Shown piece by piece: positions 17,561 through 25,331 of a stretch of 64,000 nt of DNA (positions are counted from its first letter, which is position 1; each line of letters begins with the position of its first letter). The notes under the pieces were generated by a model, which worked only from the letters and a program-made list of their open reading frames with translations, made no database searches and was not told the DNA's origin. The DNA lies in NCBI GenBank assembly GCA_963668175.1, contig OY764159.1, positions 800,001 to 864,000 of the forward strand. Reading direction: 5' to 3'. The position numbers and the translations under genes were made by a program. This DNA comes from Syntrophales bacterium. Its GTDB lineage: Bacteria > Desulfobacterota > Syntrophia > Syntrophales > PHBD01.

Positions 17561-18871
17561 CTACTTGGAAGATTCGATGTACTGGACGATCTTCTCGGCG
17601 ATGGTCTTGACGACGTATTCGAACTTAGCCGGGTCCTTTTCCAAGAGCGTCATCCTGAAGCCCGGCAGCGCCGTGGAGAACGAAGAAAGCGGCACAACGC
17701 AGATTCCCGTTGACCCCAGGAGGTAATAGACGAAACGTTTGTCGAAATCGATGTTGCCGGCGATCAGTTTTTCGATGTACTCCTTGACATCGTCGTGCTC
17801 GATGGGAAGCGTCTGCCGGCTGTTCAGCACGGCTTCGTTGAAGACGGCCGTCATGTAGAAGGCGCCGTTGGTCCGGTTAACCGTCAGCCAGGGCACATCC
17901 TTCAGGATGTTGTAGGCGATGTTGGACAGTCTTTCGTAGTTTTGCCTCCGTTCCGTCAGGTAATTCTGGTATTCGGGATGTTCCATGATCTTGGGGATGG
18001 CGGTCTGGGGCAGCGTCGTTGAACATACCTCCGACATCTTCTGATTGAGGATTGTGTTGATATAACGCCGAAACTGCTCGTCCTTGTCGGCGTTGTAAAC
18101 CTCTATCCAGCCGCAACGGGAACCCGGCCAGGGGAATTCCTTGGAAATACCTTTCATGCTGACAGCCGGGACATCCTCGACAACGTCGGACAATGGCGAT
18201 GTCTTCTTGCCGTTGTAAATGATGTTGTGATAGGTTTCATCAAAGATGAGAAAGAGGTCGTATTCCTTGGCGATCTTGACGATCTGGCGCAGCGTGTCTG
18301 TCGGGTAAACAAAACCGGTCGGATTGTCCGGATTGATGACGAGAATACCGACTATGGCCTGATGGCTCTTGACCTTCTGCTCCAGTTCGCGCATGTTGGG
18401 ATACCATTTGCTGTATGGATCCATCCGATACGTATTGGCCGGGAATGAGGCGTGCAGCACCTCCGCCAGGAAATGGGTCGAATAGGTCGGTTCCGGAAGT
18501 ATAATACGTGCGTCGATCTGAATAGCGCTATAGGATCGGGCAATGGCATCCCCCAGCCCGTTGAAGAAAATGATGTCTTCAGGACTGATTTGGACGTGGC
18601 CCCGCTGATTGACCTTATTGGCGAGATATTCCCGGGTCGCATTCATGCCTTTCGTCGGCGAATACGCAAAGGACATATCGTCCCTGATGATTTCGATGAT
18701 GACTTCCTTCATCCAGTCGGGGATCTTCTCGCCCTTCTGCACCGGATCACCGATATTTTCCCAGTGGACCTCAACCCCATATTCCTTGAGTTTGTTGGCC
18801 ACATTGACGATGTTGCGTATCTCGTACGTCAATCCGCTGCCGCCTTTACAAATATTGAATCTCATATCCAT
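17561..18871 (-). CDS. PLP-dependent class I/II aminotransferase (AlaA-like)
   Basis: YEIR, NIGDP, INPDNPTG, DETY, SKEFPWPGSRCGW. Confidence 0.88.
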   Translation of the reverse strand: MDMRFNICKGGSGLTYEIRNIVNVANKLKEYGVEVHWENIGDPVQKGEKIPDWMKEVIIEIIRDDMSFAYSPTKGMNATREYLANKVNQRGHVQISPEDIIFFNGLGDAIARSYSAIQIDARIILPEPTYSTHFLAEVLHASFPANTYRMDPYSKWYPNMRELEQKVKSHQAIVGILVINPDNPTGFVYPTDTLRQIVKIAKEYDLFLIFDETYHNIIYNGKKTSPLSDVVEDVPAVSMKGISKEFPWPGSRCGWIEVYNADKDEQFRRYINTILNQKMSEVCSTTLPQTAIPKIMEHPEYQNYLTERRQNYERLSNIAYNILKDVPWLTVNRTNGAFYMTAVFNEAVLNSRQTLPIEHDDVKEYIEKLIAGNIDFDKRFVYYLLGSTGICVVPLSSFSTALPGFRMTLLEKDPAKFEYVVKTIAEKIVQYIESSK

Positions 18872-19065
18872 TCCCTTCGGGTTAAATCAAGCGCGTTGAA
18901 AAAGTGCATATTACATCTTTTAAGAATTATCCACAAAATTCTCATCTTCCGGCGATCTCCGGTCCAAATCGGAAACGGGCCATATTTTTCTGGATTTGAA
19001 AGCATATTTCCCTTAAAATTACGACAATCAAAATCGACGGGTTTGCGCCCGGAAGTGAGGATTGA

Positions 19066-19374
19066 ATGCAGAAAGCAGGTAGATTTTTCTTGACGGTCAC
19101 GGCGGCCCTCCTCCTGACGACAGGTATTGGAGATTTGGCATGGGCGGCCGAGCGTGAGATCCGGCTGACCGTGCCCGAGTGCGCCACCTGAGGCGGGCGG
19201 TCCAGGATAGGTACTATCCTGAAAAGAACGCCGGGTGTTATAAAATACGAAATTCCCGGAGACAACAAGGTGCTTGTTACCTTTAACGATGAAAAGACCA
19301 AAGCGGAGGATATCGTCAGGAGTCTGACCAGGGGCGGCGCAACGGTCAGGGGAAACCCGGAATATGTAAAATAA
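19066..19374 (+). CDS. Putative exported HMA/MerP-fold selenoprotein, CxxU (in-frame UGA at 19189-19191); not in ORF track
   Basis: GAGG SD; MQKAGRFFLTVTAALLLTTGIGDLAWAAEREIRLTVPECAT[UGA]GGRSRIGTILKRTPGVIKYEIPGDNKVLVTFNDEKTKAEDIVRSLTRGGATVRGNPEYVK-TAA (102 aa); HMA-like sequence on both sides of the UGA; SECIS-like hairpin follows. Confidence 0.8.
19189..19232 (+). promoter_or_regulatory. Bacterial SECIS-like recoding element
   Basis: TGA-11 nt-CAGGATAG/GTA/CTATCCTG perfect 8-bp stem (19203-19221) with G,U in the loop; possible lower pairing GGCG/CGCC. Confidence 0.75.
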
Positions 19375-19443
19375 ATAGGATGTGCATGGCTTCAATAAGC
19401 TTTGCACGCCCGGGACGGAACCATCGTTACAGATGAAGTGAAC

Positions 19444-20655
19444 TCACTTGCGCTCCTTCTCGTCCGATATGAGACGATCCATCCGAAAGTGCAGGAGCAT
19501 GTCGATGAAAGAGGCCGTACGGAGCGGATTTTCGTTCATGGCATACAGCCTGTCCGTCTGAAGAGATGGTGATGGCCCCGGAAAATCCAGCGTCCAGGCG
19601 GAAATCTTCTCCAGCATCCGGTGAAGATCGGGACTGACCGATTCCCCCGACCGGATAGGCAGTATCTTAAATCCGGCAGCGGCCGTTTCTACCTCCGCGA
19701 CCCGTCCTTCATTCTTTCTCCTCCGGGTTTTTCTCTCATAACGGCCCATTTGCCCCGATAAATCTTCATTCGCTTCGCGAACCCGGACATAATAGCCCGT
19801 TCGAAGTACGATAGGGCCTGCCGGGCTCGAAGATGCGATTGTTGTATCTTCGGGGACTTGGAAGAGAACCAGATAGCTTCCCTTGTCGCGGGATTCCTTC
19901 GCGAGCGTATCCCAGGGAATGGTAAGCTCTCGCACAGTACGGGATAATTTCAGATTCCGGTCCCAACGGACGGCGATGGCCTGAAAGTGCAGGCGGTCCT
20001 TCATGGCGGCGAATGTCCGGGCAAAGGCATAATCCGTATGAAAATCGGGCAGGAAGAAACGGACATCCGCTGAGTGAACGAGAAAAATAACACGGCATTT
20101 CACACCCATATCCACACGCGCCGCCAGCTCCAGGAGATGCTTCCTCCCGCGTTCCGTGACCGCGTCGGGGAACATGGCGAGTTGTCTGCCGAAGAGGGTG
20201 CAGGATTTCACTTCGATGAGGATCTTCTCGCGTCCTTTCTGCACGAGCAGATCGAACCTGCTCTTTCCCTGCTTCACTTCCGTTCCGATGACGCGCGCAC
20301 CCTCGAGGCCTTTGATTCTGTCCCGTTCGATAAGGGCTCTCACGATGTCGTTGGCCTTCTGGGTATGGAGGAGGATGATCCGTCCCTCCTTTTCCACGGC
20401 CACGGCGGTAAAAAACGTTTTTCTTTCGGGAGCATCCGTATTTTTAACGAGGGCGATGGGTTGTTCCGGCAACAGCAGTTCCCAAAGACGACCAGGGTTG
20501 GGCAAGTGCGCTGTCACCTTCTTGCCTTGAAGGCGGCATTCAACGATGAAACGGTTGGGACGGGAGAGAAATTCACCCCAGCGGACATTGCTGAATAGCG
20601 GTACGGAGAATGGATCGTCATGCTGGTGCTCCATAGAGGTTACAATCGCTCCCAA
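19444..20655 (-). CDS. sfsA: SfsA nuclease-family protein with a C-terminal DUF123/GIY-YIG-like extension
   Basis: RPNRF, HLPNPGRL, SRFDL, IEVKSCTL, FPDAVTERGRKHL; ~150 extra residues (KGSYLV…GYYV). Start may be 20634. Confidence 0.85.
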   Translation of the reverse strand: MGAIVTSMEHQHDDPFSVPLFSNVRWGEFLSRPNRFIVECRLQGKKVTAHLPNPGRLWELLLPEQPIALVKNTDAPERKTFFTAVAVEKEGRIILLHTQKANDIVRALIERDRIKGLEGARVIGTEVKQGKSRFDLLVQKGREKILIEVKSCTLFGRQLAMFPDAVTERGRKHLLELAARVDMGVKCRVIFLVHSADVRFFLPDFHTDYAFARTFAAMKDRLHFQAIAVRWDRNLKLSRTVRELTIPWDTLAKESRDKGSYLVLFQVPEDTTIASSSPAGPIVLRTGYYVRVREANEDLSGQMGRYERKTRRRKNEGRVAEVETAAAGFKILPIRSGESVSPDLHRMLEKISAWTLDFPGPSPSLQTDRLYAMNENPLRTASFIDMLLHFRMDRLISDEKERK

Positions 20656-22122: not shown

Positions 22123-23202
22123 ATGACCATTCTTGACCGTTATGTGACCAAAGAGTTTTTGAGGCTTTTGGTCCTGATTCTCATGACCCTGATCCTGCTT
22201 TCCCTGCTTGTCGATTTCTTCGGTAAAATCAGGATGTTTCTTTCCAACCATGCGACGTTTGCCCAGATGGCGTCCTATTTTCTCTGGGAAATCCCCCTTT
22301 TTGTCTCCCTGACCCTTCCGGCTTCCGTCCTTCTGGCATCGCTCATCACATTCGCATCCTTCTCGCGATCCAATGAAATCATCGCCATGAAGGCCAACGG
22401 CATAAGTCTCTACAGGACATCGCTGCCCGTCATCGTTATTTCGGCCTTTATCTGCATCATTACGTTTTTCGTAAGCGAGTTCCTGACCCCTTATGGTATC
22501 GATAAATCCGAATATATCAGGCTTGTGGATGTTCAAAAGCAGACCGACAAGGGAACCTTCAAACAGAACCAGATCTGGTACAGGGGACATTCGGCCATCT
22601 ATAACTTCAGGTTTTTTGACCCGGAAAGGAATATCCTCAAAGGGATTACCATTTTTTATCTCAATTCCTCTTTCCATCTGACGTCGAGGCTTGACGCCGA
22701 GTGGGCCGAATGGCGGGATGGGGCATGGGTCGGCCACAATCTCCTGATCACGACCTTCAAGTCGGAAACCTTCCCCGGTCTCGAATGGGTCAAGCAGAAA
22801 CCCCTGGCGATTCCCGAGCAGCCGTCGGATTTCAAAGTGGTCCAAAAAGACTCGGAGAAAATGAATTATCTGGAACTCCGCCGCTATATCAACAAGATGC
22901 GGGAGGAAGGGTACGATACGGCCCGTTACCAGGTCGATATGTATGGCCGGACGGCTTTCCCCTTCATCACCTTAATTCTTGTATTTATCGGTATCTCTTT
23001 TTCCCTGAGATTAGGCCGTAGCGGAGGCGTAACCCGAAGTATCGGTTTAGGAATCGTCATCGGGTTTTCGTACTGGCTTGTTCATGCCTTCTCTTTGTCG
23101 CTCGGCCGCTCCGGATCGCTGCCCCCGATCCTGTCTGCCTGGATGGCCAACATTCTTTTTATGGCTGCTGCGGCCTATATGTTTTACCATGTCGAGACCT
23201 GA
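22123..23202 (+). CDS. lptG: LPS export ABC permease
   Basis: ILDRY, SNEIIAMKANGIS, periplasmic beta domain, AWMANILF. Confidence 0.85.
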   Translation: MTILDRYVTKEFLRLLVLILMTLILLSLLVDFFGKIRMFLSNHATFAQMASYFLWEIPLFVSLTLPASVLLASLITFASFSRSNEIIAMKANGISLYRTSLPVIVISAFICIITFFVSEFLTPYGIDKSEYIRLVDVQKQTDKGTFKQNQIWYRGHSAIYNFRFFDPERNILKGITIFYLNSSFHLTSRLDAEWAEWRDGAWVGHNLLITTFKSETFPGLEWVKQKPLAIPEQPSDFKVVQKDSEKMNYLELRRYINKMREEGYDTARYQVDMYGRTAFPFITLILVFIGISFSLRLGRSGGVTRSIGLGIVIGFSYWLVHAFSLSLGRSGSLPPILSAWMANILFMAAAAYMFYHVET

Positions 23203-23316
23203 AACACCGTATGATACGATCGCAATCCCCTTCCATGGCGGCGGAGAAATCATTTGCCCGAAGAACTTGATTCATGTATATGTCCACGTTTGGCTCAAGA
23301 GGAGCGATAGAGCGAG

Positions 23317-24201
23317 ATGGAACCGTCGTCCACCGTGATCATGATTGTGAGGATAGCCCATCTCATCCCTGCCGCGGTCAGGAAAGGGATGTTCAAGGCG
23401 GTATGCCGTCTTTTTTATTACATATCGGCAAAGCACAGGATGATTACCCTCTTCAATCTTAAATGCGCCTTTCCGGACAAGGACTTGCGTGAGCTGGAGG
23501 CTATCGCCAAGGGCGTCTACCGGAATCTGGGCATCGTTGCGGCCGAATTCTTCGACCTCCCTTATCTGAACAGTCAGAATATCAGGGACATCGTCGAGGT
23601 TGAAGGATTAGAAAACTATCAACGTGCGCTTGCCAAGAATAAAGGTATTCTGACCTTCGGGGGACATTTCGGCAACTGGGAATTGAGCGCCGTGGCCTTC
23701 TCACTTTATGCCAGGCCCATTGTCGTCATTTACCGGCCCCTGGACAGCCCGATTCTGGATGCGTTGGTCAGGTATGTGCGCTCTTCGACGGGTAATATCC
23801 CGTTGGCGACGGCTCATGCCATGAGGCCGATGATTCGGCATTTGAAGAAAAATGATATGATCGGTCTTCTGGTCGATCAGAATGTGGCCTGGCAGGAGGG
23901 CGTTTTCGTCGATTATTTCGGCCGGCCCGCCTGCACGACCGATGGTTTGGCGCTCCTGGCCATGCATACGGGGGCCGCCGTTCTTCCCTCTTATCTCGTC
24001 AGGATGGAGAACGGCCGGTACCGGCTGGTATTTGAGGAGGAACTGCAGCTCGTTCGTACGGGCGACCGAAGTGCCGATGCGAGGATCAACACGCAGATGA
24101 TCACGAAGAAGATCGAGGATATCGTTCGTCGATACCCCGATCAATGGCTCTGGATCCATCAGCGTTGGAAGACGAAAGCCTGTCAAGCCCGGTGGCAGTA
24201 A
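23317..24201 (+). CDS. Lipid A late acyltransferase (LpxL/HtrB family)
   Basis: GHFGNWEL, LVDQ, FFG-like YFGRPA, PDQWLWIHQRWK; start uncertain. Confidence 0.88.
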   Translation: MEPSSTVIMIVRIAHLIPAAVRKGMFKAVCRLFYYISAKHRMITLFNLKCAFPDKDLRELEAIAKGVYRNLGIVAAEFFDLPYLNSQNIRDIVEVEGLENYQRALAKNKGILTFGGHFGNWELSAVAFSLYARPIVVIYRPLDSPILDALVRYVRSSTGNIPLATAHAMRPMIRHLKKNDMIGLLVDQNVAWQEGVFVDYFGRPACTTDGLALLAMHTGAAVLPSYLVRMENGRYRLVFEEELQLVRTGDRSADARINTQMITKKIEDIVRRYPDQWLWIHQRWKTKACQARWQ

Positions 24202-24239
24202 CAGAGCTTACATATGGATTGCTGAACAGCCTATAATAT

Positions 24240-25331
24240 ATGGATCAATCAATAAAGTTGAAAGTAAGAGCCGCGAAGGCCATTCCCTTCGAACGGGTCG
24301 AGCGCCTCCTGATCAGGGGCACGAACTGGATCGGCGACGCCGTCATGACCATGCCGGCCATTGCCGCCATCAGAAAATCGTTCCCCCGGGCCAGGATTTC
24401 CATCCTCGTCAAGCCCTGGGTTGCCGAACTATTCTATATCAATCCCGATGTCGACGAGGTCGTTATTTTCGAAGATCCCGGACGCCATTCCGGACCCACG
24501 GGGAAATTCAGACTCTCCATGGAACTTCGGGAAAGGCGTTTCGATGCGGCCATCCTGCTGCAGAATGCCATCGAAGCGGCCATTATTGCCGGACTGGCCG
24601 GTATCCCCATCCGCGCCGGTTACAATTCGGATGTCCGGGGAATGCTTCTGACCCACTCGGTACGGCGTACGCCGGCCATCTTCAAGGTCCACCAGGTCGA
24701 CTATTACCTGGAGATGGTCAAAGCGCTGGGTTGTCAGTCGGCGGGGCGCACCCTCGATCTTCGTCCCTCGGAAGAATACAGAAAGTTGGCAGATGAGGTT
24801 CTAGCACCGTTCGGATTCGACAAGGAACGGTTTCTGGTCGGCCTGGCCCCGGGGGCCACTTACGGGCCGGCGAAAAAGTGGTTCCCGGAACGTTTTGCCG
24901 CGGTTGCCGATCATGTCATGGATCATTACCCGGCACAGGTCGTCCTGTTCGGAAGCGCCGCGGACAGGGACTCCCTCGGCGCGGTAGCCGCGAACGCCCA
25001 TCATCCATTGATCGATCTGGCCGGGAAGACAAGCCTCAAGGAGGCGATCGGGCTGATTTCCCGCTGCCGTCTCTTTGTGTCAAACGATTCGGGACTTATG
25101 CATATCGCCGGGGCACTCGACATCCCTACCCTCGCCATTTTCGGGTCCACGAATCCCGTAACGACATCCCCCGTGGGCAGCAGGTCCGTAGTCATCCGGA
25201 AAGATGTATCGTGCAGCCCCTGTCTGAAGGTTTCCTGCCCGACGGATTTCCGCTGCATGAGCCTCATCAAGACCGACGAAATATGCCGCGCCGCGGATGA
25301 TATGCTGCGGTTGCCCCCCGGTGGCGAGTGA
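24240..25331 (+). CDS. waaF: LPS heptosyltransferase II
   Basis: NWIGDAVM, PGATYGPAKKW, NDSGLMHIA (GT9). Confidence 0.88.
   Translation: MDQSIKLKVRAAKAIPFERVERLLIRGTNWIGDAVMTMPAIAAIRKSFPRARISILVKPWVAELFYINPDVDEVVIFEDPGRHSGPTGKFRLSMELRERRFDAAILLQNAIEAAIIAGLAGIPIRAGYNSDVRGMLLTHSVRRTPAIFKVHQVDYYLEMVKALGCQSAGRTLDLRPSEEYRKLADEVLAPFGFDKERFLVGLAPGATYGPAKKWFPERFAAVADHVMDHYPAQVVLFGSAADRDSLGAVAANAHHPLIDLAGKTSLKEAIGLISRCRLFVSNDSGLMHIAGALDIPTLAIFGSTNPVTTSPVGSRSVVIRKDVSCSPCLKVSCPTDFRCMSLIKTDEICRAADDMLRLPPGGE

Follow-up and report, generated by a model that had tools for sequence, protein, structure and literature searches.

A conserved, unannotated selenoprotein family of MerP-like build in a Syntrophales bacterium and its relatives

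The window analyzed in this study is a stretch of 64,000 nucleotides (nt) from a Syntrophales bacterium (assembly GCA_963668175.1, contig OY764159.1, positions 800,001 to 864,000 of the forward strand). We found that its plus strand almost certainly carries a real selenoprotein gene at 19066-19374, with a single in-frame TGA that is read as selenocysteine (Sec). Standard annotation misses this gene, because gene finders stop at the in-frame TGA. Under translation table 11, the only open reading frames (ORFs) at the site are one of 41 amino acids (19066..19191, plus strand) and two antisense ORFs (18862..19407 and 18942..19301, minus strand). When the TGA is translated as Sec, the product comprises 102 residues with a single TGA and reads MQKAGRFFLTVTAALLLTTGIGDLAWA, followed after the predicted signal peptide by AEREIRLTVPECATU-GGRSRIGTILKRTPGV...VLVTFNDEKTKAEDIVRSL...EYVK. 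An earlier note on this DNA, made from the letters alone, had proposed a Shine-Dalgarno sequence, an ATG, a signal peptide, the in-frame TGA and a TAA stop at this place, and re-reading the sequence returned the same coordinates and the same 102-residue read-through. Purine-rich runs comparable to the putative Shine-Dalgarno sequence also lie 5' of the starts chosen for the homologues. The locus brings together a recoding signal with the machinery that serves it, an exported fold of the HMA/MerP type, and Sec at the second ligand position of the metal site.

To a large extent, the gene is documented by its relatives. A six-frame search of 61 related genomes from the same family and order (E <= 0.001) detected it in 35 of them, with exactly one TGA in 36 of the 38 match rows and none in the other two. 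Twenty sequences, that of the window included, were extracted and aligned. The homologues share 31-46% identity with the window protein, and the TGA occupies one shared column in 19 of the 20 sequences, the remaining one (locus L019, from genome G042) having TGT (Cys) at this place. The invariant residues of the alignment are C39, U42, R47, D75, I83, G90 and P98. No homologue ends at the UGA, and both the conserved residues and the coding signature continue beyond it. Pairwise nucleotide identity at the first, second and third codon positions is 0.55/0.65/0.36 over 92 ungapped codons, with values of 0.51/0.60/0.34 upstream of the UGA (31 codons) and 0.56/0.67/0.37 downstream of it (60 codons). 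This similar third-position variation on the two sides of the UGA indicates that selection acts on the plus frame on both of them. Moreover, where the plus strand varies, at its third positions, the antisense ORF has its first codon positions, and this excludes the latter as the gene. Several homologues terminate with TGA, so these genomes also use the codon as a normal stop.

These data bear directly on the possibility that the locus is non-functional (a chance ORF, a pseudogene or the product of a sequencing error at the TGA) and that the real gene is the antisense ORF. Such a reading draws on the single 41-residue ORF obtained with table 11 and on the 181-residue antisense ORF that covers the region. 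We consider it extremely improbable, since it is contradicted by the comparative data: the TGA is kept in nearly all match rows, purifying selection is seen in the plus frame on both sides of it, the hairpin described below covaries, and the antisense ORF has no Pfam family and varies at its first codon position. In addition, an independent contig assembled from run X5, which comes from another study and carries another organism label, is identical to the window over 18973-19261, TGA included. This answers the concern, raised in the earlier note, that reads might show TGC or TGT at 19189-19191. Run X1 is possibly the source of the assembly and so is not independent, and the contig from X6 starts 4 nt before the TGA, too near the contig end to count.

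The genome also encodes the machinery for Sec insertion. The genes selA (605.8 bits), selB (386.7 bits in a profile search with a cut-off of 242) and selD (391.4 bits) and a tRNA-Sec (77.4 bits, anticodon tca) are all present, each above its curated cut-off, as the earlier note had proposed to confirm. The selD gene (L004, G000:C1:4129230-4130159) has a single in-frame TGA of its own, hence its product is a Sec-containing selenophosphate synthetase. The second-best match to the selB model (L002, G000:C1:1043967-1045136; 182.7 bits over positions 2-345) includes one in-frame TAG and may span two genes.

A hairpin that we assign to a selenocysteine insertion sequence (SECIS) begins 11 nt 3' of the UGA. 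Bacterial SECIS elements follow rules of spacing and of a G in the apical loop, and the hairpin was compared with them. The 65-nt stretch that contains it folds with -23.2 kcal/mol (z -3.19). When covariation was counted on the aligned region of the 19 Sec-form homologues, pairing was kept in 92.1% of the cells and both sides had changed in four of the eight pairs, from G-C to C-G at the base and from A-U to C-G or G-C inside. None of 500 shuffles reached the observed covariation score, and pairing fell to 34-48% when the registers were slid by 1-3 columns. G32 of the loop is invariant across the Sec forms. The sequence of the hairpin doubles as the codons for R-I-G-x-I-L, and the codon for Arg47 is AGG in 18 of the 19 Sec forms and AGA, together with a compensating ATT, in the remaining one. 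The Cys form L019 has CGC ATT AAC GCG ATC ATG at the corresponding codons and no hairpin. A search of 18900-19500 against Rfam (E up to 10) returned no SECIS and three chance matches (E 0.5-4.6), far below their gathering scores. The coordinates of the gene and of its elements are compiled in Table 1.

Table 1. Coordinates of the selenoprotein gene and its elements in the window, with the basis of each assignment.
Feature	Position	Strand	Description	Basis
Selenoprotein coding sequence	19066..19374	+	102 codons including one UGA (Sec), then TAA stop	Read-through translation, homologues
Shine-Dalgarno-like sequence	19057..19061	+	GAGGA, purine-rich, 4 nt 5' of ATG	Direct sequence reading
Start codon	19066-19068	+	ATG	
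Predicted Sec-type signal peptide	19066..19146	+	Residues 1-27, cleavage after A-W-A	Inspection and simple script
Mature HMA/MerP-fold domain	19147..19371	+	beta-alpha-beta-beta-alpha-beta	AlphaFold2, Foldseek
C39-A-T-U42 motif	19180..19191	+	TGC GCC ACC TGA	Invariant C39 and U42 columns; MerP 1osd alignment
Codon of Cys39	19180-19182	+	TGC	
UGA read as Sec	19189..19191	+	Residue 42	Shared alignment column, Sec machinery
Extended predicted structure	19186..19236	+	Lower stem includes the UGA	Minimum-free-energy structure only
SECIS hairpin	19203..19221	+	8-bp stem CAGGAUAG/CUAUCCUG, loop GUA; alternatively 7 bp, loop GGUAC	
Stop codon	19372-19374	+	TAA	

With high confidence, the product can be described as an HMA/MerP-like domain that is predicted to be exported. 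A simple script found export features in all 20 aligned members. Each has 1-4 K/R among its first 8 residues, a hydrophobic stretch of 12 residues with a Kyte-Doolittle mean in the range 2.2-3.5, and small-x-small sites at a distance of 17-30 residues from the N-terminus. The window also encodes an LptF/LptG permease, a lipid A acyltransferase and a family 9 heptosyltransferase (22123-25331), and these lipopolysaccharide and outer-membrane genes indicate that the host has an outer membrane and a periplasm. The AlphaFold2 model, built with the 20-sequence alignment, reached a mean predicted local distance difference test score of 85, with 10-residue block means of 62-66 over residues 1-30 and of 85-96 from residue 31, and a score above 90 for the domain. 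It comprises the strands (E) and helices (H) E29-35, H42-54, E58-65, E68-74, H80-89 and E95-101. When this model was compared with the PDB by Foldseek, reduced MerP (1afi) came first, followed by CopA, oxidised MerP (1osd), HMA7, Atx1 and other HMA domains. The target-normalised template modelling scores of the top eight matches were 0.73-0.85, and many HMA structures were matched at a probability of 1.00. Model and matches thus agree on the fold that the earlier note had proposed, which is the HMA-type ferredoxin-like fold; no title among the listed Foldseek matches names a thioredoxin-fold protein.

A profile search of PDB sequences pointed in the same direction, with CopA domains at E 4.2e-10 and MerP at E 6e-7 (1osd) and 1.9e-6 (1afi). 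In the profile alignment to 1osd, C39 and U42 fall on both metal-binding Cys residues, U42 on the second, as the earlier reading of the UGA had it. The V-T-F-D-D-x-K-T-S strand is matched as well, and the residues 'mt' of MerP are treated as an insertion. The binding loop, V-P-(G/E)-C-x-x-U-G, is two residues shorter than the GMTCxxC loop of MerP. It has the form V-P-G-C in the family and V-P-E-C in the window, and the GMT residues that precede the first Cys of the canonical metal loop are missing, in keeping with the loop lacking GMx that had been described before. The outcome with the HMA model of Pfam (PF00403), which the earlier note had suggested to run, was divided: the protein matches it at E 6e-4, but its 20.6 bits stay under the gathering score of 24.8. 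The same model matches 10 of the 20 family members at E <= 0.01. Among the NCBIfam families, the best is MerP itself (TIGR02052; E 2.9e-9), with 37.3 bits against a cut-off of 92.55 and an alignment that starts at residue 11 and thus covers the signal peptide. NF041115, a family of UxxU metal-binding selenoproteins, scores 13.1 bits against a cut-off of 95 (residues 38-90), and NCBIfam release 20.0 contains no model whose cut-off the protein reaches.

The gene is flanked in the window by an aminotransferase gene (17561-18871, minus strand) and the SfsA gene (19444-20655, minus strand), and is by itself on the plus strand. No gene for a metal-handling partner adjoins it there, nor does one for CcdA, DsbD or a thioredoxin. 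In 15 of 20 loci of the family, a divergent pair lies on one side of the gene and a convergent gene on the other. Judged by eye, the divergent pair is Maf-like and YggS-like, and the convergent gene is nucleotidyltransferase-like and resembles mannose-1-phosphate guanylyltransferase. The gene thus sits at a conserved place in the chromosome, surrounded by housekeeping genes, rather than on a mobile resistance island. MerT (PF02411) has no match anywhere in the genome, and the best match to MerA reaches 386.6 bits, below the cut-off of 454.45. Hence, a mer operon is not in evidence by merT or by merA over cut-off, no search having been made for merR, and the earlier statement that no mer or cop transporter lies nearby holds for the neighbours in the window and, for merT and merA, for the whole genome. 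Canonical HMA genes occur at only two places in the genome, near 740 kb, where a CopZ-like gene is paired with one for CopA, and at 2.9 Mb, where there is a single one.

Fold and context together decide on whether the protein is a canonical MerP that would act in mercury resistance together with MerT and MerA. TIGR02052 is the best-scoring curated family and MerP the top structural match, as such a role would predict. It is contradicted by a score far under the family cut-off, by the loop lacking GMT, by the absence of a merT match and of a MerA over cut-off, and by the conserved chromosomal setting, in which housekeeping neighbours and a synteny kept across families differ from mobile mer operons. 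We regard this role as very improbable.

A scan for promoters and terminators found one promoter-like site, which lies inside the gene and does not exceed the shuffle expectation (0.9), and no terminator. Upstream of the start codon, at 18990-18998 of the window, we noticed a 9-mer resembling CTGGATTTT, roughly 57-78 nt out by eye. Such a motif is found in 9 of 20 upstream regions of the family, one mononucleotide shuffle having given a maximum of 6 of 20, and the other loci that carry it at a similar upstream distance are L012, L014, L016, L024, L025, L021, L022 and L017. Judged by eye, its spacing does not suit a sigma-54 promoter. The motif could be a promoter or operator element.

In the wider family, the site takes several forms. 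A phylum-wide search of 401 genomes (E <= 1e-5) found matches in 28 of them, with one TGA in 20 of the 29 match rows. CxxU is the site of the core group. Other loci have CxU (C-S-U, C-E-U or C-A-U in L039, L041, L043 and L045) or C-S-S-U-P (L040 and L042), and the distant exported relatives L048, L050 and L051 have Sec and no Cys, in the form P-G-V-V-U-G. L046 and L047, read from the part after the TGA, are probably Sec-only too. In the TGA-free L049, L052, L055 and L056, the protein is an ordinary exported one with GMTCxxC. To judge from the Sec-only variants, the essential residue may be Sec rather than the Cys-Sec pair, which fits dimeric metal binding or single-selenol chemistry.

Protein databases contain many relatives of the family under other names. 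When 1.84 billion representatives were searched in full with HMMER, 621 proteins passed E <= 1e-3 and 42 passed E <= 1e-10; this search superseded an initial word-index search with the read-through protein, which had found no match among proteins of 56-179 residues. A contig search with the single protein gave one weak and uninformative 26-residue match, in a metagenome-assembled genome of Aquabacterium. Among the 27 HMMER representatives that were fetched, 9 have W at the Sec site, 8 have CxxC, 4 have CxC, 4 are fragments that begin just past the Sec site, and 2 have other forms. The W residues probably come from gene callers that read TGA as Trp. In the source records, 45-residue fragments labelled Smithella or Smithellaceae are called 'hypothetical protein', and the IMG names give 'exonuclease VII small subunit' for some fragments and 'copper chaperone CopZ' for a Cys form; none of the source names checked refers to a selenoprotein. 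The long database matches are ordinary P-type ATPases with several HMA domains. The sole fusion to a rhodanese domain and leucine-rich repeats is P0053, an exported protein of 519 residues in which the domain of the family, here with CxxS (C-D-A-S) instead of CxxU, precedes the rhodanese domain and the repeats.

The neighbourhoods of two variant loci hint at a different function, in redox reactions or oxidative stress. In L041 (genome G015), the CxU gene lies on the same strand as its two neighbours, upstream a flavoprotein gene resembling dihydrolipoamide dehydrogenase (NF004947, 536 bits, below cut-off) and directly downstream a gene for an exported peroxiredoxin-like selenoprotein. The latter (L041:1829-2383, plus strand, TGA at 2057-2059) is a second exported candidate selenoprotein, with a signal peptide and a peroxidatic Sec in F-T-P-V-U. 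In L039, the family gene is preceded by a rubrerythrin gene. A tentative alternative to metal binding is that the protein is a periplasmic redox protein, in which Cys39 and Sec42 would cycle through a selenylsulfide and exchange electrons with an exported partner such as a peroxiredoxin; it would then represent, with the same reservation, the HMA-fold counterpart of the thioredoxin-like CxxU selenoproteins. CxxU at the N-terminus of a helix is the classic redox motif of many selenoproteins, and a 2026 inventory considers most selenoproteins of uncharacterised function to be likely redox proteins on account of their CxxU and UxxC motifs (PMC13188914). For MerP itself, the title of the 1osd entry, 'oxidized MerP', indicates that a Cys-Cys disulfide can form. 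The row of genes in L041 and the rubrerythrin gene of L039 fit as well, but redox neighbours occur in 2 of the 11 variant loci examined, in none of the other nine and in none of the 20 core loci, and the window gene has no CcdA, DsbD or thioredoxin gene beside it. Moreover, the fold is that of HMA and not that of thioredoxin, the nearest sequence relatives are metal binders, and the VVU variants lack a resolving Cys.

The distribution of the Sec and Cys forms follows the Sec trait in part. Among the 61 related genomes, 56 have selB. G042 (98% complete) is the only strong-match genome with a Cys form (CRPC). Searches for selB and selA gave no match in this genome, and its tRNA-Sec score, 48.1 bits at best, is on a par with second-best matches in genomes with a tRNA-Sec. 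Its congeners G023 and G375 have selA, a tRNA-Sec of 73-75 bits and the Sec form. Of these two, G023 was covered by the selB search, which found the gene in it. The selB gene is present in 31 of the 33 carriers of a TGA-bearing copy, the two without a match (G017 and G043) being 85-86% complete. It is also present in 24 of the 26 genomes without the family, so a lost Sec trait does not account for the gene being missing there. G422 holds a Sec copy (C-S-A-U, L031) and a Cys copy (C-A-D-C, L058) on different contigs.

This near confinement of the TGA forms to genomes with the Sec trait would also be expected if the protein were a periplasmic carrier of selenium or sulfur species, which might, for instance, take up or deliver selenide or a persulfide bound to the Cys/Sec pair. 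The rhodanese fusion of P0053 and the sufficiency of one Sec in the VVU variants could be taken in the same sense. The co-occurrence says little, however, because selenoproteins can occur just in Sec-using genomes, and the selB genes of the family-free genomes show that the Sec trait does not depend on the family. In addition, no locus examined links the gene to selD, selA or a selenium transporter, and the rhodanese fusion is one protein among 150 listed. A carrier role appears quite improbable to us.

We lean, by a modest degree of confidence, toward periplasmic soft-metal binding through S and Se as the primary role of the protein. MerP and CopZ HMA domains bind a soft metal ion through two thiolates. 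In this reading, the SelB-dependent hairpin located 11 nt past the UGA directs the insertion of Sec at residue 42, the cleavable signal peptide exports the product into the periplasm, and the protein folds as a MerP-like HMA domain with a shortened binding loop. By analogy with MerP and CopZ, the thiolate of Cys39 and the selenolate of Sec42 could then jointly hold a soft chalcophile ion, for example Hg(II), Cu(I), Ag(I) or Cd(II), and the selenolate might add affinity for chalcophile metals in sulfidic, anoxic habitats. Being placed outside a mer operon, the protein would serve a vertically inherited chromosomal housekeeping role, for example buffering, scavenging or hand-off to a partner.

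Several of the observations reported above weigh against soft-metal binding as the primary role. The scores for the HMA and MerP models fall short of their thresholds, the GMT residues of the canonical loop are missing, and CxxU at a helix N-terminus is as much a redox motif as a metal site. The Sec-only VVU variants show, moreover, that not every relative could chelate a metal with two ligands from a single chain. As to context, the window offers no adjoining metal-handling partner, the genome has neither a MerT match nor a MerA over cut-off, and the neighbours in L041 and L039 are of the redox kind. The link to mercury methylation has to be counted here as well. The genome of the window carries an hgcA-type corrinoid protein (G000:C1:2038640-2039629, 451 bits, over the NF040863 cut-off), so the host is a candidate mercury methylator, and hgcA is over cut-off in 26 of the 61 related genomes. 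By a hand count of these genomes, 17 have both the family and hgcA, 18 the family only, 9 hgcA only and 17 neither. With an odds ratio of about 1.8 in related, non-independent genomes, the two are near independence, and we do not regard them as associated.

A more specific version of soft-metal binding is that the protein is a periplasmic device of sulfidic or syntrophic anaerobes, in which a Cys-Sec clamp takes Hg, Cu and perhaps trace Ni, Co or Zn from sulfide complexes. This version seems unlikely to us as matters stand, and the same low expectation applies to its extension, in which the clamp would serve housekeeping metal acquisition or buffering and the CxU and VVU sites would be tunings of it, VVU acting as a dimer. 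If it were true, the clamp could set the amount of Hg(II) that reaches the methylation machinery in hgcA hosts such as the present one. The family also provides a natural series of sites, Sec versus Cys, CxxU versus CxU, and Sec-only without Cys, on which the gain of a selenolate over a two-thiolate site could be tested. Once the family is listed, the selenoproteomes of a large anaerobe group, with many hgcA carriers among its members, could be corrected.

As regards novelty, the family is not in the selenoprotein catalogues that we checked, and unnamed entries in the supplements of other surveys are possible. The 2026 inventory of 119 selenoprotein families includes MerT-like proteins (C/SxxU), a P-type ATPase (UxxC), NF041115 (UxxU) and MbdU (CU), and its Table 1 contains neither an exported HMA/MerP protein with CxxU or CxU nor a separate MerP entry (PMC13188914). 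Passages of a 2022 review give the same picture (PMC9312934). Passages of the Haft 2022 preprint mention selenoproteins of the MerT family, not an exported CxxU family of the HMA/MerP-like type, and nothing relevant to the family was found in passages of the deep-Sep paper. The earlier note had cautioned that Sec forms of mercury-transport-like proteins were already on record. This is correct as far as the label goes, since Dataset S1 of the Global Ocean Sampling (GOS) survey lists a selenoprotein named 'Mercuric transport protein MerP' (PMC2398784). In its sequence, the likeness does not hold: the entry consists of two identical 33-residue read fragments with T-U-C, which by eye do not resemble V-P-G-C-x-x-U-G...R-I-G.

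Among the known systems, MerP (TIGR02052; 1afi, 1osd) is one of the closest. It shares with the present family a signal peptide followed by a single HMA domain, aligned ligand positions and the best structural match, and 1osd also has in common the V-P-G before the site and the T-F-D-D-x-K-T strand. Unlike MerP, the family has Sec for the second Cys, a loop two residues shorter (no M-T) and no mer operon. The cytoplasmic chaperones CopZ and Atx1 and the N-terminal domains of CopA (1cc7, 1oq3, 6ff2) have a common fold and ligand geometry with it, but they use GMxCxxC and have a P-type ATPase as partner, and the present genome has a separate CopZ-like/CopA pair. The Sec-containing cation-transporting P-type ATPases likewise replace a Cys by Sec in an x-x-spaced motif of a heavy-metal protein, a UxxC motif that presumably lies in their HMA domain. 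In them, Sec takes the first position in a cytoplasmic-side part of a transporter, whereas here it takes the second in a stand-alone exported domain. These ATPases are listed in Table 1 of PMC13188914 and in PMC2398784. NF041115, or 'UxxU_metal_bind', which appears as 'putative mercuric reductase' in Table 1 of PMC13188914, is also a selenoprotein family of the metal-binding type with Sec in an x-x-spaced motif. It differs in having two Sec residues, while the present family has one, at the C-terminal position, and matches the model weakly and below its cut-off. Sec in place of Cys in an HMA metal motif is thus already known in principle, and the family extends a known kind. Altogether, our results define a real, unannotated and conserved selenoprotein family, which is built like MerP, yet is not MerP and belongs to no mer system.

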